From positions 32,001-96,000 of the IMG/VR virus record IMGVR_UViG_3300014152_000001: a stretch of 64,000 bases of DNA; one strand, written 5' to 3'. Below are positions 6,858 through 50,929 of the stretch, in pieces (within the stretch, counting starts at the first letter, position 1; each line of letters begins with the position of its first letter). The notes below the pieces were generated by a model. That model searched no databases, was not told the origin of the DNA, and worked only from the letters and a program-made list of their open reading frames with translations. This DNA is from a virus. A program made the translations under genes and the position numbers.

Positions 6858-6979
6858 GTTTAAATAGTCCTAACCCCTATCTCTACTCATGGTAAAGGAC
6901 AGTCTCGGCCACGAAGTCGAGTTTCGTGACTATTGGGATTAGAAAAGCCCTTATATAGTCGGCTGTCCAATTAAGTCTC

Positions 6980-9325
6980 ATGAGCAGTGATGGTGCTAGA
7001 CGACCTGAAGAGGCTTTCGGCAAGACGACTCCATATGCCACCTGTCCAATCTGCCACGCCTTCATGCTAACTGAAGAGTATGACAAACACATGGCTCAAA
7101 ATCACTCACAAGAACAACGAAACAAATATACCCCAAAAGATGAAGAGAGTGGACCACAGGGCCACTTCTATGGTGATGTCTGGTCGAAGTATGAGGCCAC
7201 ACAAAGTCCGGCTTATCAACTCACCCAAGACGAGTTGGACAAGATTACTAATGAAGCGTGGGAAGGAGAAGGTTGTGAAGATTGTCGAAGCATAATTCAA
7301 AGCACCGAGATGGATAAGAAGGGCAACTATGCCATCTATCCTACATCAAGTCAAGTCGGACACATGAGCGACCTCTTCGGATACCAAACCGAGCCATCCA
7401 TGCCTACCACTGGTTATCTAGACCCAGAAGACCCCAAATGGCAACAGTCGGTTGAGCACATCCAAGAGCGACAGAAGACCCCGAAAGGGGTAGGAACCTT
7501 TGGGCCACAGTCTGGAATGACGAGAGACGAACCCACTCGTGATGAATGGCAAGTGACCAGTTATCTAGACAGCGTTGGTGTGACCTATATCCATAAGATG
7601 AAGTTAGGAGAACTAGACTCTACAACAGAGAAGCCAAAGGTTGAGTATGACCTCTATCTTCCAGACCTAGTTATGGCCATCGAAACCTCACCGGGTTGGC
7701 ATGAGGGTGGGCCACAAGCAGGAAGATTTCCACAAGTAATTGAGAATGACCACTTCAAAAAGAACTTTGCTGAAGAGCATGGAATAGACTTGGTGAGTTT
7801 CGACCCTGCTCAGGGAACGGAAAAGTTTATCAACGAAACCCTAGTGCCCAAGTTGAGGGCTGTGGGTGTGAATGCCTTTGAAGTGCCTACAACAAAGAAC
7901 GAAGAAAAGGAGAGGCTGGTATGGTGTATGGATTGTGGTGGTCTCTTTGATGACAAACCATCTCTGAACACACACTTCCAACAGACTGGACATAGTTCCG
8001 TAGGCGAAGGGACGGTAGAGAAGTATGAAGAGTTTGAGAAGGGCAATCCCTTCAATCAGCAATACATCTACCGAGAAGAAGACACGCTCCCAACATCTTG
8101 GCTTGCTCCGGTCTTCAAGTATGAGGGCTATGGGAAGGGCGAAGAGGAAGGTGGTGGAAGATTCCCAGACCCCGCTAACCATATAATGGGACCGGGAGTT
8201 GAGGTCAAGAAATGTCCTCATGGTAATGGTGTCTTCGCTACTCGTGACTTCAAAGAAGGAGAACTAATTTCAAGTTTCAAATCCCCATTTGTAAAGGAAC
8301 TTCCCGACCCTGCTCGTGGATGGGCCACTCTAAGAGTGGGAGACCTGTGGTGGGAAGAGCCAGCATCAGGAGAAGAGGACGAATGGGCCAACTTCTTAGA
8401 CCATGAGAAGTCGCCTAACTCTGTCTTTGTCAACTTCAACTTTGATGAAGGGACGGGAGACCTTATGACGACCCGACCTATCAAAACAGGAGAGGAAGTC
8501 TACATCGATTACGGTGCATACTCACCAGAGAACATAGGCGATGTCAGCGAAGACTTCGCCCCAGAAGACCTACCCCCAGAAGTTGTTCCTGCGGTCCCAG
8601 AGACGACAACTCTACCACCCACAGAGCCAGAAAAGGACTTAGGACAGGAAACAGCAGGATACGATTGGGATTACAACGTGAAGTATCGAGAAAAGCCTAT
8701 TCTTGAAGAGCAGTCTGGAATCAACCAGAATATTCCGACTGGAATATATTCCAGAGTGGAACCTCTTGCCTTTGACCAGTCCCAAAACGTGCCCAGATAC
8801 CCAGAGCGTGGGAAGGTCAATACCATAGAACAAGAGAGTGGTGGTGAAGAGTTGGCGGCTGATAGTCACCTGTTCCAAGAACAAGAGGAAGGTGGAGTCT
8901 ACCTAGCCTGTCCGAAATGCACTGGCGGTGGCGGCTTCTACAATAGGAGAGGCGATAAATGGATTACCTGCCCAATGTGTGGTGGAACGGGTAGCGGAGA
9001 GAAGCAGTTCGATTGGCCTGAAGACGAGAGAGACACCAAAAACGAGGGACGATGGGACGCACCAACACCAGACAAACAGAATGAAGCCGAGAAGATGGCC
9101 TACTATCAGTTGGCTGACGAAACAGGAGACTACATAATGAAAGCAAGAGAAGACGGCTCTCTCACAACACCAGAAGCCGATGCTCTAATGGCTCTACAAA
9201 CTCAAGCCAAAGAAGCAGTATTAGTAGACAATCTGGAGAAGGCACAAGAAATACTGGCTAAAATGGCAGAACTTGTTACGACTAAACTGGGAGTTCAAGA
9301 CCTAGACGTTGAAGGACAGCAGTGA
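6980..9325 (+). CDS. Multidomain protein: Zn fingers, Vsr/DUF559-like nuclease, SET methyltransferase domain, DnaJ-type Zn finger
   Basis: YDLYLPDLVMAIE..WH (PD-D/ExK); GNGVFATRDFKEGE, NFLDHEKSPN, PIKTGEEVYIDY (SET); CPKCTGGG / CPMCGGTG. Confidence 0.75.
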   Translation: MSSDGARRPEEAFGKTTPYATCPICHAFMLTEEYDKHMAQNHSQEQRNKYTPKDEESGPQGHFYGDVWSKYEATQSPAYQLTQDELDKITNEAWEGEGCEDCRSIIQSTEMDKKGNYAIYPTSSQVGHMSDLFGYQTEPSMPTTGYLDPEDPKWQQSVEHIQERQKTPKGVGTFGPQSGMTRDEPTRDEWQVTSYLDSVGVTYIHKMKLGELDSTTEKPKVEYDLYLPDLVMAIETSPGWHEGGPQAGRFPQVIENDHFKKNFAEEHGIDLVSFDPAQGTEKFINETLVPKLRAVGVNAFEVPTTKNEEKERLVWCMDCGGLFDDKPSLNTHFQQTGHSSVGEGTVEKYEEFEKGNPFNQQYIYREEDTLPTSWLAPVFKYEGYGKGEEEGGGRFPDPANHIMGPGVEVKKCPHGNGVFATRDFKEGELISSFKSPFVKELPDPARGWATLRVGDLWWEEPASGEEDEWANFLDHEKSPNSVFVNFNFDEGTGDLMTTRPIKTGEEVYIDYGAYSPENIGDVSEDFAPEDLPPEVVPAVPETTTLPPTEPEKDLGQETAGYDWDYNVKYREKPILEEQSGINQNIPTGIYSRVEPLAFDQSQNVPRYPERGKVNTIEQESGGEELAADSHLFQEQEEGGVYLACPKCTGGGGFYNRRGDKWITCPMCGGTGSGEKQFDWPEDERDTKNEGRWDAPTPDKQNEAEKMAYYQLADETGDYIMKAREDGSLTTPEADALMALQTQAKEAVLVDNLEKAQEILAKMAELVTTKLGVQDLDVEGQQ

Positions 9326-9996: not shown

Positions 9997-10065
9997 CTAA
10001 CCATAGGTATAGTATTCACTACTATTTAAGGCTTTTTAGCCTTTTCCTGTAATACTTCGATGTCT

Positions 10066-10332
10066 TCACTTAGTCTCTGTCTTTTCTGGCTCTGGAATTC
10101 CAAGACCTTTTCGCCTCGCCTTCTTTTCCTCTTCGGTTTCAAAGGGCATGATGACTCCTGATTCATAGGTCAGCCCCTCTTCGGCATAACCGGATTCCGA
10201 AGTGACTGGGGTGATTTCGCCAAGTCCACCACCTGACTCTACGGTGATACACTCTGGTCCCATGTGCTTCAGGTCGTCTTCTGTGGTCTTGATAGCCACA
10301 TGATGCGTGAGACAGATTTTCTCTATTCCCAT
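10066..10332 (-). CDS. Hypothetical protein
   Basis: Start re-placed at MGIEKIC downstream of a TATA box. Confidence 0.5.
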   Translation of the reverse strand: MGIEKICLTHHVAIKTTEDDLKHMGPECITVESGGGLGEITPVTSESGYAEEGLTYESGVIMPFETEEEKKARRKGLGIPEPEKTETK

Positions 10333-10530
10333 ACTAGGACTACTTAATGGTATTGCCCTATATAAAGATTCGTTGTCAAGGGTATTCAAATATCCCTGTT
10401 GGTCCCATTCCTTGAGCCGCACACGCGGCTGTAGGAATGAGAGTATGGCAACTGCACCCACAACCGAAGTTCAACCTTGCATGACCGCAAGAGTCACAGA
10501 CCCCGCAACCACACTTAGAACAGAATCCCA

Positions 10531-10833
10531 TCACTTCAACCCCAGATTGCGTTTAATACCCGCGATATAGACATCCAACAGAGAAGAGAAGACATTAGTG
10601 AAGGCATAGACCTCATTAGTGAAGGCATAGACCTCATTCAACTCTTTATGTGACCAGAACTCGCACTCAGATTTATGGGCTATTGGAAAGAGATACCGCA
10701 AAAGAGTGGCGAGGGCTGGCCTTGGAATATACATTGTTTCCGTGTAAGTAGGGAGCATGATTTTGTCCTTCTCAAAGTCTCCTGTCTCAAGGTCTTTGAC
10801 GATTGCATCAATACACTTTTGGCAGAGTTTCAT
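10531..10833 (-). CDS. Hypothetical protein with an internal 7-aa duplication
   Basis: Coupled to the uS2 stop; NEVYAFT twice. Confidence 0.55.
   Translation of the reverse strand: MKLCQKCIDAIVKDLETGDFEKDKIMLPTYTETMYIPRPALATLLRYLFPIAHKSECEFWSHKELNEVYAFTNEVYAFTNVFSSLLDVYIAGIKRNLGLK
10593..10634. repeat. Perfect 21-bp tandem duplication
   Basis: CATTAGTGAAGGCATAGACCT x2. Confidence 0.95.
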
Positions 10834-11519
10834 TTTTCCTCATCCTCTTCCTCCTTCTCCGGCATCTTAGTCTCAAAGTCCTCAATAGTGAGGGGTGTTT
10901 TAGTCATGGCATCAAATATCTCCTCATCTGCCTTTATCTTCTCAGAGTGAAGCAAGATAGACCTAGCCAAGAGATAGAAGACCGTGGCTATGGCCTTTGC
11001 GCCAGTGTTGTTGGCCGGAATGCAGAGGTCCAAATCCTCGAAAGTGGCGTTGGTGTTGCAGATGGCAATAACGGGGATACCAACGCTTCCGGCCTCTTGC
11101 ATGGCCCTTCGGTCTCCTTTTATGGCTTCTCCTATCTTCTTCGGTATGCCATTGGTAGGGTCGGAGACAATCAACACATTTGCATCAATGTAGTATTTCG
11201 ATTGAGAGTTTGTAAGACAACCCGGCATGAAGCGATGAAAGACGGTGGGTATGAGAGTGGCCTTCTCAAATGCCGTAAGAGCGTTCTCAAATCTCGCATC
11301 AGTGGCATAGAGCACAGCACCTTCGGTCTTGACTATGAACTTACCAGCCGTGTCAAGCCGAGTAAGGATGGCGTTCACATCCAAAATGGGATTGCCACTT
11401 GGAGCGATGCTAGAGACATACTGAGCCATGTCTTTAGTAACTGCTCCCTTAATGCCTAAGTGTATACCAGTGGCCTTTAGTGGCTCTTCTGTAAGGGTTT
11501 TAGGTAGGATATGACTCAT
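10830..11519 (-). CDS. rps2: Ribosomal protein uS2 homologue (archaeal type, divergent)
   Basis: GIHLG...TKDM, RFMPGCLTN, LIVSDP, AMQEA..VGIPVIAICNT, DLCIPANN.G.KAIATVFYLLAR, IEDFETK; colinear with archaeal uS2. Confidence 0.9.
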   Translation of the reverse strand: MSHILPKTLTEEPLKATGIHLGIKGAVTKDMAQYVSSIAPSGNPILDVNAILTRLDTAGKFIVKTEGAVLYATDARFENALTAFEKATLIPTVFHRFMPGCLTNSQSKYYIDANVLIVSDPTNGIPKKIGEAIKGDRRAMQEAGSVGIPVIAICNTNATFEDLDLCIPANNTGAKAIATVFYLLARSILLHSEKIKADEEIFDAMTKTPLTIEDFETKMPEKEEEDEEK

Positions 11520-12745
11520 TGTTTGCTTACCCCTACACATCTAACCAACTCGTCCAGTATGGCCTCTACATCGTTGGTGTGAGTCTTAGCACTGCCAGCA
11601 GGTTTCAATCCACCCCCTTCCATGATGGCAGGATTGGCACTTCTGAAGGCCTTGCCAATGTGGATTGTGCTGTCCCTTCCGCCCCTACCAGAGACATGAA
11701 CCCCATACTTAGGAATGGTGTTAATGACGAACCAAGTCTTATGGTTGGTGTTGGTAAACTTACTGCATAGTGCAGAACCCATGTTCCATTTGCTACTGAT
11801 GATGGTCACACCGAAGTCTGGGTAGTCTAGTTGGGTGTAGTTGCCCCGCTTCTCTACATCTCCCTTGTCCTTTCTGTAGTTCACAGTGAGTTCCAGAAGC
11901 ATCTTAGTGTTGGAGTTCTTTGGTGTTGGAGTGGTCGTTGGAAATACAGTCGGCTCCCAGAAGAGGTCGCCCTCAATCTTTTCCTTGTTGACCATCGCAT
12001 AGAAGTCTAGCCAATTAGGAATCTTCTCCATCTCTTTCATGGCTTCATAGCAGATGGGCGGGGCTTTGTTGAATATCATCCTTCGAGGATTGTGAAGCAA
12101 TTGGGCGTAGAATGCAAGAATGCTCCAATCGTAACTACTGTTCAGACTCTTGGAAGCAAGCAATCCCCGCATAGAAGGATGCTTGTTGAGGAGTTCTTGG
12201 AAGAGAGGGCCACCTTCTTTGGTCCCAGTTGCTACATCTCCTTCTAACCCTAGCAAGGCCCACTTCTCCATGTTGACTACCGACCATCCCATCCTCTTGG
12301 CAAATGCGTAAGAGATGCCAGTAGTGCAATTCTCGGTGGATGACTCATAGTAGAAGAAGGGGAGATTGGGGAAAGGAAACTTCCCTTGGAGATTGGCTAA
12401 AGTCTTTGCATACTCTCCATAGGCTTCTGCGGTTTCAACCAAAAGGTCTGGCGGGTGGTTGTCCAAGATGATGACATTGATGCCACTGGCCAAAAATGCT
12501 ACTGCATAGTTCAGCATCTCTTGACCGCTTCCAAGGTCTAGAATGAAGACCGTTGCTGGCTTCAAGTCCATTATGTCTGAGACATTCTTATCCGTCATCC
12601 CGAAGACATCCCAATCTTGCCACATAATAGTGTGGGTAGCCTTGGGAGCATTCAGGGAGATGGCATTATGGATGATGCGACAGGCGCACATCCCATCGGT
12701 ATCTTCATCGCTGAAGATTACGGTATCCTGATTTGCTTTACTCAT
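11516..12745 (-). CDS. DHH/DHHA1 phosphoesterase (RecJ/GAN-like)
   Basis: DEDTDG, ILDLGS, ILDNH, GLEGDV, VSGRG, GGGLKPAG motifs. Confidence 0.8.
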   Translation of the reverse strand: MSKANQDTVIFSDEDTDGMCACRIIHNAISLNAPKATHTIMWQDWDVFGMTDKNVSDIMDLKPATVFILDLGSGQEMLNYAVAFLASGINVIILDNHPPDLLVETAEAYGEYAKTLANLQGKFPFPNLPFFYYESSTENCTTGISYAFAKRMGWSVVNMEKWALLGLEGDVATGTKEGGPLFQELLNKHPSMRGLLASKSLNSSYDWSILAFYAQLLHNPRRMIFNKAPPICYEAMKEMEKIPNWLDFYAMVNKEKIEGDLFWEPTVFPTTTPTPKNSNTKMLLELTVNYRKDKGDVEKRGNYTQLDYPDFGVTIISSKWNMGSALCSKFTNTNHKTWFVINTIPKYGVHVSGRGGRDSTIHIGKAFRSANPAIMEGGGLKPAGSAKTHTNDVEAILDELVRCVGVSKQ

Positions 12746-12911
12746 GACTATAGGTATCCTCTCTAACCTATATAAAGATTCTAATGGTTTAACCAGTAGA
12801 GGCAACATCTAATATGGACAAAGTGCCACGCCCAATTCCATTTGTCCCCAACCTTGCATCTAGTCAATTTACCACACTCTTTGTTCTTATAGAGACATCT
12901 CAGTGACTTCA

Positions 12912-13568
12912 TTAGATGCTCCTACGCAAACCTTTGATGTAAGGCAGTAGTCTTTCGTGGGCCTTCTCCAGAAGGATGACATCTCGCTTGTTGTGGTCTT
13001 GGATGTAGTCTCTAGCCTTCGGACTGAGCAAGGCTTGAGTCCAGATGTCGGGGTCTAGGTGCGTCTTAAGGTCTCCAAAGCCCAAGAGACTGCCTGCGTT
13101 CTCCAGTCTATTTCTGCTCATCTTCAGTTTGGACTTCACAACATAGTAGAGGTCGTGATGGATGATTGAGCCATACTCTGGGAATGGCACATTCCACTTC
13201 AGAGCACGAGTTCTCATGAAGGGGATGTCGTAACCTGTTCCGTAGTAGGTCACTACCATGTCGAATTTGAGCATATCCTCAATGCACTGAATCACTAGAG
13301 GCTTGTCCAACCTCAGTGCATCAATGTCCTTCTGTTGAATCACGTTTGAATAGATGATGTCTTTGCCTCTTACTTTGAAAGCGTAACTCAGAAGGATGCC
13401 AAAGTCTGCGTCAAGATTGGTCGCTTCGATGTCAAAGTAACCGATTCTGAAGTCGTTTTCGGTATTCGCCACAAACTCGTCCCAACATTGTGGGTGCTCC
13501 GTTCCACGATGACCGTGAACGCAATGCCAATGTTCGGCAACTATCAGTAATTTCTTTGGGTCTTTCAT
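12912..13568 (-). CDS. RNase H-fold 3'-5' exonuclease (DEDD, YprB/PolB-exo-like)
   Basis: YFDIEAT, YYGTGYDIPF, HHDLY, HNKRDV. Confidence 0.8.
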   Translation of the reverse strand: MKDPKKLLIVAEHWHCVHGHRGTEHPQCWDEFVANTENDFRIGYFDIEATNLDADFGILLSYAFKVRGKDIIYSNVIQQKDIDALRLDKPLVIQCIEDMLKFDMVVTYYGTGYDIPFMRTRALKWNVPFPEYGSIIHHDLYYVVKSKLKMSRNRLENAGSLLGFGDLKTHLDPDIWTQALLSPKARDYIQDHNKRDVILLEKAHERLLPYIKGLRRSI

Positions 13569-14290
13569 ATCACTACCATACCCTTCGTTTCTACTCCTAA
13601 TAAGTGTTTGGCTTTACCCAGTCTCTCTGGAGTTCCACAATCCATGTAAGGACATTTGGCCTTGACTACCTTGAAATCGGTTCCTTTCAACATCATCAAT
13701 GAAACAACATCTGCCATAGTTCCTCTTTGGAATTGGCCATACTTTGAGAGTTGTTTCACCGTAGTCTTCATCATATCTGTGAACACCCAACCTTCTGAAT
13801 GAACGTTAAGCGTCCCACAAACGTAGGGCGGAGTCTTGATTTTTCCTTTCCAATCGAGAGTTAGAGCAGGTCGTCCAAGCATATCACCCTTCGCCACCAC
13901 TATTGCGTGTTCTTGTTCCATCAACTCATCCATGAAGTTGAAGTTCTTGAAGTAGGAGTCGATGGCTGAGAAGACGACCTCAGTAATCACACTGTGCGTC
14001 AGATACACAGGAACGTTACTGGTTATCCAAAGGGCCGGATTGTTCACCTTCTGAGCGTCTACATAGATACCAAGATTCTTATCCTTGAAAGTAGTATCCA
14101 TGTTATCCAAACGCCACTTGGCCCACCAACCTTGATTCCACTTGCTATGGACTATCCACACCGTATCCGCAGGCACGGCATCGATAATCCTCTCAAAGAG
14201 AGGAAGTCCATCAACAGAGAGCAGATGCTTCTGCACTGCTTCGGCTGAATAGCCACCAGCCAACAAAACTAAGATTCTCTTCTCACTCAT
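13565..14290 (-). CDS. Sugar-phosphate nucleotidyltransferase-like (GT-A fold, degenerate)
   Basis: LLAGGY...KHLLSVDGLPL; YMDCGTPE. Confidence 0.65.
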   Translation of the reverse strand: MSEKRILVLLAGGYSAEAVQKHLLSVDGLPLFERIIDAVPADTVWIVHSKWNQGWWAKWRLDNMDTTFKDKNLGIYVDAQKVNNPALWITSNVPVYLTHSVITEVVFSAIDSYFKNFNFMDELMEQEHAIVVAKGDMLGRPALTLDWKGKIKTPPYVCGTLNVHSEGWVFTDMMKTTVKQLSKYGQFQRGTMADVVSLMMLKGTDFKVVKAKCPYMDCGTPERLGKAKHLLGVETKGMVVI

Positions 14291-14475
14291 CTCAGTTGAC
14301 CCTTTATGAATCGTGCCTTCTGAATTGCTCTGAATAAGACATTGTTGACTTCTTCATTAGCCGCTATTTGAGCCGTCCTTTCGTCTATTCCGTTTTTCAC
14401 CATATAGTCGTAGAGAAGACGAAATATTGTGTTGGCCTCTTCCTTGGTAGGATAACTTCCAACTGATTTTTCCAT
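14287..14475 (-). CDS. Hypothetical protein
   Basis: TATA upstream; coupled to the next gene. Confidence 0.5.
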   Translation of the reverse strand: MEKSVGSYPTKEEANTIFRLLYDYMVKNGIDERTAQIAANEEVNNVLFRAIQKARFIKGQLR

Positions 14476-14509
14476 ACCTACCCCTACTACCCTATCCTAT
14501 TTAAAGATT

Positions 14510-15406
14510 CTATGCTTCCTTGAGCATATTCATTCCTTTACGAACCGTCCAAAAGTCGCTGGCGAGAGTTGGGTCGGACAGATAGGCGTAAGGTATCGTG
14601 AAATACCCTTCTTGCCCCCAGTCTGTTCCCCAACTGTTACGGCAGATGAATCTCTGTGAGGCATCGTTATATCCGAGACACATGACAGCATGACCACCCA
14701 CTGTATAGTCATTCGACCCCGGCATCGGCACGACTCCTGTTACTTCAACTGAGAGACTCTCAAAACTGTTGTAGACGGTGAAACCATAGACGAAAGGAAA
14801 CCCCGCGTCTAAACACGCTTTCATGTCAGCCAGTGTGGTGATACTGAAGTATTGGGTAATCTCGTGATTCGTCCCTTCAGTATAGGCATTGGTTGGCGGC
14901 TGGACAGCGAACTTGCCGATGTCATATGCCCATGTTGCTTCGTAACACGACCCTTGCTGTGCAAGAGTCTTCGCCCCATCACGAAGTTCTGCCCCAGAAT
15001 CAGTGTTTACTGTTCCTTCGATAACCCTCTCATTATAGTAGATAAAGAGTCGACTGAAATTGAGTGCTCCCGTCTGCTCCTGAAGCCCGTCCTTAATCTC
15101 AAGGAAGGCTAGTGCCCCGGCCCAAGCATTCGCAGTGCAACTTCCTAAGTCTCCTTGGTCTACGATTGGTGAATCCAGACACCGCATATCCACTACACTA
15201 TTATCAGGCGGTGTTGGCGATGGATTCGGTTTTGGGTCGAAAATGCTCATGAGCCAATTCCAGAAGTCCTGCCATATTCCTTTCTCAACAGTCTCAACCT
15301 TCATAATGTCCTGTCCTGCGTGATAGATGAAATCATTAGGGTCGTAATGGTCTTTCTTCCAACCACTGAGATTATGTTTCTTGGGTTCTTTCTTAGTTTC
15401 TGACAT
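14510..15406 (-). CDS. Papain-family (C1A) cysteine peptidase
   Basis: DQGDLGSCTANA, GGHAV, RNSWGTDWG catalytic motifs. Confidence 0.92.
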   Translation of the reverse strand: MSETKKEPKKHNLSGWKKDHYDPNDFIYHAGQDIMKVETVEKGIWQDFWNWLMSIFDPKPNPSPTPPDNSVVDMRCLDSPIVDQGDLGSCTANAWAGALAFLEIKDGLQEQTGALNFSRLFIYYNERVIEGTVNTDSGAELRDGAKTLAQQGSCYEATWAYDIGKFAVQPPTNAYTEGTNHEITQYFSITTLADMKACLDAGFPFVYGFTVYNSFESLSVEVTGVVPMPGSNDYTVGGHAVMCLGYNDASQRFICRNSWGTDWGQEGYFTIPYAYLSDPTLASDFWTVRKGMNMLKEA

Positions 15407-49255: not shown

Positions 49256-50929
49256 ATCTGTAGAATGGCCTTAGTTCTCTCGAAGAGCCAAGTCGATAGA
49301 TTCGAGACAGCATTCAAGTCGGCATGGGCAAACGCAAACGATGATGGTTGCGGCATCTACTGGCGAGACATGAAAGGAGAACGACATTTGGCTAGGTTCC
49401 CTAAGAGCGAAGACTTAGCAAAGGTCGGGACAACTTACGACAGGATGCTAATCCATTTCCGCAAGTCTACGAAGGGCGAAGGAACTCATCCCTTCACTTG
49501 TAAACACAGACCCAAACTTAACAGTGGAAACTGGCTCTTAGTTCACAACGGGTGTGTTCAAGACGAAGAGGCTAGGAAGGAACTAATCAAGACTCACACG
49601 TTCTCAACCGAGATAGACAGCGAAGTATTTGTCCATATATGGGGAGAGATTAAGGAGAAGAACCTACTTAAGAGAGCCAAGAAGTTCAATGAGGCCAGAG
49701 AGAAGGCCAACATCACAGGATGGGCGAATCTTATCTTCTACAACGTGGTCACAGATGAATGGGTTGCACTTAGCGATGGCTCGTTAAGTCTAGTTTGCAC
49801 GAAGGACACCCTAGTTATATGCTCAGACGACACTTGGCTCGACATGACAGAGGCTAACAGACGGAAGATTCCTAATGCCAGTCTACCCACTGGCGCAATT
49901 GCTTACGGAAAAGGACTCGTCTTCAAGACGAAGGCAGACATTTGGAAGATTCACTATTCCTCTTCTCAGACAACTCTTCCAACCGTGGTGAATGGGAAGA
50001 TGCTTTACTCTGGATGCAGAGACTACACAGAAACGTGGAAACCACAAAACATTCCGAGAGGTCGGCCTGAATGGAGTGCTTCGGCCAAGTCATTCGTAGA
50101 TGAAAAGGGCAACCCGTTGGAGTGGGATTCGGGCAAGAGGGCATTCGTAGACAGCAAAGGATTCCCAATAGACAACAATTCCACACAATATGGCAACCCC
50201 AATGGACATTACTTCCAAGACTCAGAGTATGAGGATGCAAACGGTGAACCCTACTGTGACATTTGTTTCATGCCTAGAGAATACCATAGTCTTGACGCTG
50301 AACTTGACGAACTTGAAAAGGAAGATAAGGAAAGGGAAGCACGACAAAAGGAGACAACCGCCATTGACAGAATCGCGAGCAGTCGCATTGACGAGAGCGT
50401 TTGGAATAAGGCTCACCCCTTCACTCGCAACTTCAATGCTCAGACCATCACTTGTATGTGTGGCTCGACTACGGGATACGGAATTCTGCATAAGGCACAC
50501 GACTTCTATCCTCTTATGACTAAGCAAAACAAACCAACAGGATATTGCCAAGTCTGTGGAAACGAGAGAGCAGTTGGAAACCATAAGGAAATGTCGTATG
50601 AGGGACACTTCTTTACTCCACTTAGGATTGAGGAAAATAAAGGAGATGGCAAGATATTCTACTCAGAGTCTACAATTTGTGGGCGATGTGGATTCAGAGA
50701 ATCAATTCATCCCATGAGTTATGACATTCAAACCAAGCAAATCACCACAATAGAAGATGCAACGACAATGAGAATAAAACCACCGATGGATTGCGGTTGC
50801 AAACCTAGCGAGAGGCCGAAACCCATAATCTGTAGTTATCATTGGGGATGTGGATTCCATGAAGCAGACAACTACGGGTTCATAATTAAGAGGATTGCTT
50901 ACGACAGCGGAAGGGTGGAACCAAATTGA
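49256..50929 (+). CDS. Class II (Ntn) glutamine amidotransferase with C-terminal Zn-finger repeats
   Basis: NDDGCG, HFRKST, THPF, VHNG, IDSE; in-frame ATC-TGT-AGA-ATG upstream restores the (M)CRM N-terminal nucleophile. Confidence 0.8.
   Translation: MCRMALVLSKSQVDRFETAFKSAWANANDDGCGIYWRDMKGERHLARFPKSEDLAKVGTTYDRMLIHFRKSTKGEGTHPFTCKHRPKLNSGNWLLVHNGCVQDEEARKELIKTHTFSTEIDSEVFVHIWGEIKEKNLLKRAKKFNEAREKANITGWANLIFYNVVTDEWVALSDGSLSLVCTKDTLVICSDDTWLDMTEANRRKIPNASLPTGAIAYGKGLVFKTKADIWKIHYSSSQTTLPTVVNGKMLYSGCRDYTETWKPQNIPRGRPEWSASAKSFVDEKGNPLEWDSGKRAFVDSKGFPIDNNSTQYGNPNGHYFQDSEYEDANGEPYCDICFMPREYHSLDAELDELEKEDKEREARQKETTAIDRIASSRIDESVWNKAHPFTRNFNAQTITCMCGSTTGYGILHKAHDFYPLMTKQNKPTGYCQVCGNERAVGNHKEMSYEGHFFTPLRIEENKGDGKIFYSESTICGRCGFRESIHPMSYDIQTKQITTIEDATTMRIKPPMDCGCKPSERPKPIICSYHWGCGFHEADNYGFIIKRIAYDSGRVEPN

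Follow-up and report, generated by a model that had tools for sequence, protein, structure and literature searches.

A divergent uS2 ribosomal protein with a conserved loop insertion encoded by tailed viruses of archaea

Why should a tailed virus of archaea carry a gene for uS2, a universal protein that is positioned on the side of the small ribosomal subunit where mRNA exits and is among those that join it late? The rule that viruses have no parts of the ribosome is made less clear-cut by those that encode ribosomal proteins. The gene considered here lies in a 64,000-nt stretch of DNA (the window), which corresponds to bases 32001-96000 of a 105,748-bp IMG/VR record that has direct terminal repeats and is rated 100% complete by CheckV. 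Open reading frame analysis, family matches, an AF2 model and Foldseek comparisons all identified a uS2 of 229 aa (P0001) at 10830..11519 on the minus strand, in agreement with the initial annotation, which had recognized there a full-length archaeal-type uS2. That annotation had also described the gene as ATGA-coupled on both sides, as we found it to be: its ATG (11519-11517) shares bases with the TGA that ends the upstream gene (11518-11516), and its stop codon (10832-10830) in turn shares bases with the start of the downstream gene (ATG, 10833-10831), placing the two overlaps at 11519-11516 and 10833-10830. A longer open reading frame starting at 11540 was rejected as the gene because the orthologues begin with MSHILPK or MSLILPK.

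[quoted passage not shown] It is a complete tailed virus of archaea of ~106 kb. No tRNA gene was found in the 64,000-nt window, no eS26 gene was found in the viral genome, and a Pfam scan of part of the proteome revealed no further translation gene. Neither the capsid protein nor uS2 had a match among 50,697 GenBank phage records. Elsewhere in the window, there is a metabolic-type gene at 49265-50929 (+), whose product of 554 aa contains a class II glutamine amidotransferase domain (GATase_6/7).

The same gene, with the same surroundings, is present in five independent assemblies from different samples. Four other IMG/VR contigs (L003 to L006) carry a uS2 that is 83, 66, 63 and 52% identical to ours, on 91, 105, 37 and 107 kb, respectively; two of the four are rated complete, one of 105,335 bp with terminal repeats and one of 106,907 bp. 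IMG/VR classes one record, G918, with a 110,754-bp contig behind it, as a provirus. All four contigs share a gene order consisting of a 241-aa gene, a PolB-exonuclease-like gene, a RecJ-like DHH gene and uS2; the opposite strand bears a large SET-domain gene. In L003 and L006 this block is preceded by a papain-like protease gene. About 20 clusters of viral-type uS2 were found in the protein database, several of them on contigs of 77-110 kb. If the locus were a chimeric assembly, or cellular DNA binned with a virus, this recurrence would need explaining, and so would the flat GC content across the locus, the ATGA-coupled viral genes on both sides and the neighbourhood itself. In a Bathyarchaeota, the cellular gene is embedded in the set uL13-uS9-RpoN-enolase-uS2-Memo-mevalonate kinase, and none of the neighbours in this set occurs at the viral locus, bearing out the earlier remark that cellular neighbours are lacking. 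Moreover, searches of 151 Thermoproteota, 401 Bathyarchaeia and 401 Nitrososphaeria genomes (~950 in all) yielded no uS2 that bears the insertion (see below) or is otherwise closely similar, and there was none either among the best 80 matches of a pattern scan over a collection of 185,579 species with one genome each. We therefore give hardly any credence to an artefact. Second uS2 copies seen in five Bathyarchaeia metagenome-assembled genomes (MAGs) were set aside as contig-end fragments or cellular-type duplicates.

Within these viruses the gene is maintained by selection. Nei-Gojobori estimates of dN/dS for uS2 were 0.13 (window versus L003, dS = 0.79) and 0.14 (L004 versus L005, dS = 0.92), and these two unsaturated pairs, all others being saturated, indicate that uS2 is under purifying selection in the related viruses. 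The protein is also more conserved than the products of most neighbouring genes (in L004, for example, 66% compared to a median near 53%). The capsid protein, at 85-86% identity in the same genomes, is conserved better still. One related complete virus contains a second capsid-like stretch (G917:C1:87536-88273, L220) that matches capsid residues 9-130 (53%) and 251-309 (63%).

How far has the viral protein moved from its cellular counterparts? It exceeded the cut-off of the Pfam family PF00318 (Ribosomal_S2) with 60.5 bits compared to 26.1, and did so too when the whole genome was searched. The match to TIGR01012 (uS2_euk_arch) reached 132.6 bits (E = 1.2e-38) and covered nearly the entire profile (protein residues 14-201, profile positions 9-185 of 196), yet fell far under the curated equivalog cut-off of 211.5, indicating a clear homologue that has diverged. 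Identity with cellular Thermoproteota uS2 is 38-42%. The AF2 model was nevertheless confident (pLDDT 91.1, pTM 0.88), and its top Foldseek matches were archaeal uS2 chains, including 1vi5, 9fhl, 9qf4 and 6tmf (E from 1e-19 to 1e-16), on which it superposed with a target TM of 0.82-0.92 and an rmsd of 1.6-2.3 Å (about 0.9 and 1.6-2.0 Å for the top matches). The fold of uS2 is thus kept. In 394 cellular-type homologues, a set weighted to Thermoproteota, 54 positions reach a conservation of 80% or more; taken together irrespective of rRNA contact, 34 of them are kept in the viral clade and 20 are changed, at an overall identity of ~38%. The motifs GIHxG, SDP, GIPVIA and IPANN and the C-terminal IEDFETK with its acidic tail are all present. 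Radical changes include R74 to D, G95 to H, L43 to N and N158 to A, and the core sites that switched to a single fixed viral residue include L43N, R74D, Q138R, N158A and W182Y.

The most conspicuous departure is an insertion of 12 residues, T122-I133 (TNGIPKKIGEAI), encoded at 11121..11156 on the minus strand and placed between SDP and KGDRRAM. The initial annotation had proposed an insertion of about this length, and three comparisons establish that it is genuine and specific to the viral clade. First, the solved archaeal uS2 chains 6tmf, 6skf and 4v4n show a 12-residue alignment gap opposite residues 122-133. Second, among 434 homologues of at least 150 aa each, drawn from protein searches, 80 named genomes and 80 metagenome loci, the spacing of the invariant P121 and A139 is exactly 5 residues in 394, compared to 17 in the viral clade. 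Third, the insertion is carried by every member of the viral clade and by no cellular member, and its motif DPTNG[IV]PxK[IV]G is kept across the clade. The AF2 model gives the loop a pLDDT of ~92 without regular secondary structure. Since the loop comes after the strand ending in SDP, it would be sited where strand ends meet in the alpha/beta domain, along one edge of the parallel sheet and beside the ends of the GIHxG, CNTN and PANN loops. The equivalent pocket in E. coli (His18, Asp188, Asp204 and Asp205) binds zinc and docks S1, and the topology described there suggests that the viral insertion adjoins the counterpart of this docking pocket (PMC4288201).

The conservation of the loop bears on the simplest functional explanation, in which the viral copy is equivalent to host uS2 and merely replenishes a late-assembling, exchangeable protein during host shutdown, the insertion being neutral. 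Purifying selection and retention of the core would be expected of such a supply, and a preprint reports that the uS2 cluster is needed for late maturation of the small subunit in eukaryotes (bioRxiv 10.1101/2023.01.18.524556). Against it, both length and sequence of the insertion are strongly conserved: G124, P126 and K128 are 96-100% conserved in proteins that are otherwise only ~50% identical, which argues against neutrality. The divergence from any cellular uS2 is, in addition, extreme for a spare part. On balance we hold a plain supply role to be decidedly improbable.

Other insertions occur at the same loop. HMMER searches retrieved ten very divergent uS2 homologues (P0121-P0125, P0128, P0133, P0136, P0160 and P0166) in which the stretch from the P to the A anchor spans 13-31 residues instead of the usual 5, an excess of 8 to 26. 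These homologues group with the viral clade even without the loop columns (SH-aLRT 93), possibly as a result of long-branch attraction. They are absent from IMG/VR, and a metagenome scan for insertion-bearing homologues with a generic pattern returned only ordinary cellular loci among the matches listed. One of the ten, P0124, lies on a 161,867-bp JGI contig. That the loop might mark a whole radiation of virus-borne uS2 variants building virus-specialised 30S subunits in Thermoproteota is a bold extension of these alignments, and in our estimation an improbable one.

In phylogenetic reconstructions the viral uS2 proteins form a single branch inside Thermoproteota (SH-aLRT 98-100), and its stem, at 2.5 substitutions/site, is very long. 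The trees nest this branch in Nitrososphaerota (SH-aLRT 98-99), beside six 'Thaumarchaeota' MAGs and one other archaeon, in a sampling of named archaeal phyla where Asgard, DPANN and Poseidoniales are not represented by name. The donor of uS2 thus appears to be a Thermoproteota lineage. While the trees favour Nitrososphaerota, an AU test did not reject a tree joining the viral clade to Bathyarchaeia (p = 0.093), and because long branches are involved as well we leave the donor class unnamed. Profile searches and phylogeny, from which the initial annotation had hoped to learn the host too, accordingly placed a diverged homologue, under the equivalog cut-off, within Thermoproteota.

The structural genes hint in the opposite direction to the uS2 tree, toward Bathyarchaeia as host. 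Collinear portal-protease/scaffold-capsid homologues (31, 35 and 41% identical) are found in Bathyarchaeia, and relatives of the capsid module occur in 17 of the 401 Bathyarchaeia genomes, about ten of them strong, compared to 2 of the 401 Nitrososphaeria genomes, both weak. One such module sits on a 2.35-Mb chromosome (G001:C1:2056309-2063147, L211 and L212); others are L214/L215 and L216/L217. Within ±40 kb these modules share only portal, protease and major capsid protein with the virus, and they are probably proviruses or remnants. We place the host within Thermoproteota, probably in either Bathyarchaeia or Nitrososphaerota.

Regulatory signals in the window define the unit to which uS2 belongs. 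The archaeal promoter box YTTAWATAG occurs 33 times compared to 1.7 expected in a pattern scan (examples are 6950-6958 (+), 10022-10030 (-), 12768-12776 (-) and 14497-14505 (-)), and TATA hexamers cluster from -33 to -29 relative to the ATG, where 43 of 149 genes have one (background 1%). As a TATA box ~30 nt before the ATG leaves essentially no 5′ leader, the first genes of units are leaderless, a feature that the initial annotation had read correctly for many genes here. SD-like tetramers are enriched as well (49 of 149 genes, background 15%), mostly ahead of internal genes with tight coupling, 20 of 42 of which have one; the enriched forms in internal genes are GGAG, GAGG and GGTG.

In a combined pattern scan and position profile, the box TTTATATAG at 12768..12776 (-) starts 31 nt before the ATG at 12745 and is the likely promoter of a unit comprising the RecJ-like gene, uS2 and a 100-codon gene (orf100). 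The first of these, at 11516..12745 (-), is uS2's upstream partner and codes for a divergent archaeal RecJ-family DHH nuclease of 409 aa, according to profile matches that remain under their cut-offs (NF053576, RecJ_archaeal, 49.9 bits and far under; Pfam DHH, 22.9 bits); its start was assigned to 12745 because of the TATA box 31 nt upstream and because the orthologues measure 392-407 aa. The gene downstream of uS2, at 10531..10833 (-), was defined as an open reading frame of 100 aa to which profile searches assigned no family, and is weakly conserved, its sole match in the relatives being a weak one in L004 (35%). The only SD-like run before it is the GGAGG within GGAGAAGGAGGAAGAGGATGAGG (window 10834-10870 (-)), formed by glutamate codons of the acidic tail of uS2, which may therefore double as its ribosome-binding site. 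The pattern scan placed the next TATA box, again TTTATATAG, at 10358..10366 (-); it would be the promoter of the gene at 10332..10066 and marks the end of the uS2 unit. Hence uS2 is operon-internal and not itself leaderless.

The preceding unit, at 12912..14475 (-), has a TATA box at 14497-14505, is syntenic in all relatives and contains a 62-aa gene, a 241-aa gene and a stand-alone PolB-exonuclease-like protein of the RNase H fold (218 aa; Pfam RNase_H_2, 47.8 bits, also DNA_pol_B_exo2). PolB and its proofreading exonuclease are separate genes in this virus, at genome 9115-11169 (+) and window 12912-13568 (-), respectively. A homologue of papain-family (C1) cysteine proteases is encoded at 14510-15406 (-) and is 76% identical in L003 and 65% in L006. 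At 6980-9325 (+), on the strand opposite to uS2, lies the gene for a protein of 781 aa that combines a SET (lysine methyltransferase) domain with zinc-finger-like motifs and is partly conserved in all four relatives.

This setting of replication and nuclease genes raises the possibility that the uS2 fold has been exapted for a role off the ribosome, for instance as a decoy for a host factor of assembly, hibernation or quality control whose usual target is uS2, or in partnership with the co-transcribed RecJ-like nuclease. Several observations that count against incorporation into ribosomes speak for such a role, namely the TIGR01012 score of 132.6 where 211.5 is demanded, the 20 changed sites among 54, the insertion in a loop that is of fixed length in cellular uS2 and the genomic surroundings; the long stem fits a change of function as well as it fits adaptation. 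In all four relatives uS2 lies downstream of the RecJ-like gene, always nearby. This link is not strict, however: other genes or gaps of 94-174 nt intervene in L003, L005 and L006. Nor would a decoy or a new partner obviously need the whole fold and most of the universal motifs, including IEDFETK and the acidic tail, all of which are kept. Exaptation is for these reasons a serious competitor that we consider rather unlikely. The idea that the RecJ-like gene and uS2 had been acquired jointly was examined separately and rejected: no homologues of the viral neighbours were found around 194 cellular uS2 loci except for one marginal match, a RecJ-like sequence (L081:877-1290, 27% over 164 aa, E = 4e-5) ~3 kb upstream of uS2 in a Bathyarchaeota.

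We judge the chances slightly better than even that the gene codes for a functional, virus-adapted uS2 that enters the 30S subunits of the host. According to this incorporation model, an ancestor of the ~100-kb tailed virus family would have taken uS2 from a Thermoproteota archaeon and kept it since then in an early or replication-type gene block, where it would be transcribed from a leaderless-type promoter together with the RecJ-like nuclease gene. The viral protein would enter host 30S subunits, either on newly made subunits or by exchange, and the conserved loop together with the clade-specific substitutions would change what that face of the 30S binds, thereby aiding viral translation. 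Entry into ribosomes, the orientation of the loop and any influence on which mRNAs are chosen are inferred.

One attractive idea is that viral uS2 could bias ribosomes toward leaderless mRNAs. Its appeal comes from the leaderless first genes of the virus and from eS26, a loosely bound factor that favours leaderless mRNAs in Saccharolobus solfataricus (Bourgeois et al. 2025, PMC11698992). The bacterial precedent depends on S1, and to our knowledge archaea have none. The preference of S2-deficient E. coli ribosomes for leaderless mRNAs is largely due to loss of S1, which is docked on S2 (PMC4288201, PMC7531240).

No earlier report of a virus-encoded uS2 was found in the literature searched, which misses most subscription-journal papers, and in the same mostly open literature we found no paper that treats uS2 together with either archaeal viruses or ribosomal proteins of viruses. 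The survey of Mizuno et al. (2019) used 106 profiles, PF00318 among them, and uS2 is absent from both the text and the detection table; the same study noted a tendency of viruses to carry genes for those ribosomal proteins that exchange readily between ribosomes, and demonstrated entry into ribosomes for bS21 and bL12 only (PMC6375957). The ribosomal set of cyanophage PhiMa05 comprises bS1, bL21, bL27, bL33, uL11 and uL1, and not uS2 (PMC13157829). For archaeal viruses, Liu et al. (2021) called eL21 the first ribosomal protein (PMC8651126), and Duan et al. (2023) added bL19, stating eL21 to be the sole earlier case (PMC10541130); uS2 is mentioned in neither paper. These two are the only archaeal-virus ribosomal proteins in the literature searched, and uS2 is a universal protein; the viral uS2 described here is an addition to a known class of virus-encoded ribosomal proteins.

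A long-kept uS2 with a conserved extra loop, in complete viral genomes of ~105-107 kb, amounts to a natural experiment in ribosome specialisation. Bathyarchaeia and Nitrososphaerota are environmentally abundant and not yet genetically tractable. The viral protein nonetheless offers a concrete reagent, as a single peripheral protein that could be added to archaeal 30S subunits, such as those of Saccharolobus (PMC11698992), for probing the bias between leaderless and SD-led mRNAs.

Set beside known systems, viral uS2 most closely resembles the cellular uS2 of Thermoproteota (Nitrososphaerota and Bathyarchaeia; structures solved in the 30S of Saccharolobus, Pyrococcus and Thermococcus), with which it shares fold, length class, core motifs and the acidic C-terminal tail. 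It differs from these proteins in its 38-42% identity, a score under the equivalog cut-off, the 12-residue insertion and the 20 changed conserved sites, and its gene lies beside a RecJ-like gene instead of in the uL13-uS9-RpoN-enolase-uS2 cluster. Phage ribosomal proteins provide a parallel in being host-derived and under purifying selection, with a mean pN/pS of 0.10 in phages (Mizuno et al. 2019) compared to a dN/dS of 0.13 for uS2, although those proteins (bS21, bL12, bL9, bL31, bL33 and others) occur in bacterial viruses and are mostly small and bacterial-specific. The likeness to eS26 of S. solfataricus is one of functional analogy only: both would be small-subunit proteins located, in a TACK archaeon, at the channel through which mRNA exits, with a possible bearing on the balance between SD-led and leaderless mRNAs, whereas the two proteins are unrelated and the virus has no eS26 gene. 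Viral counterparts are the eL21 of haloarchaeal Hafunaviridae and the bL19 of Kunpengvirus, a virus of Bathyarchaeia, in that each is a ribosomal protein gene in a tailed archaeal virus; they are different proteins at different subunit sites. With Kunpengvirus our virus further shares the encoding of PolB and its proofreading exonuclease as separate genes, an arrangement that was reported there as unusual (PMC10541130).
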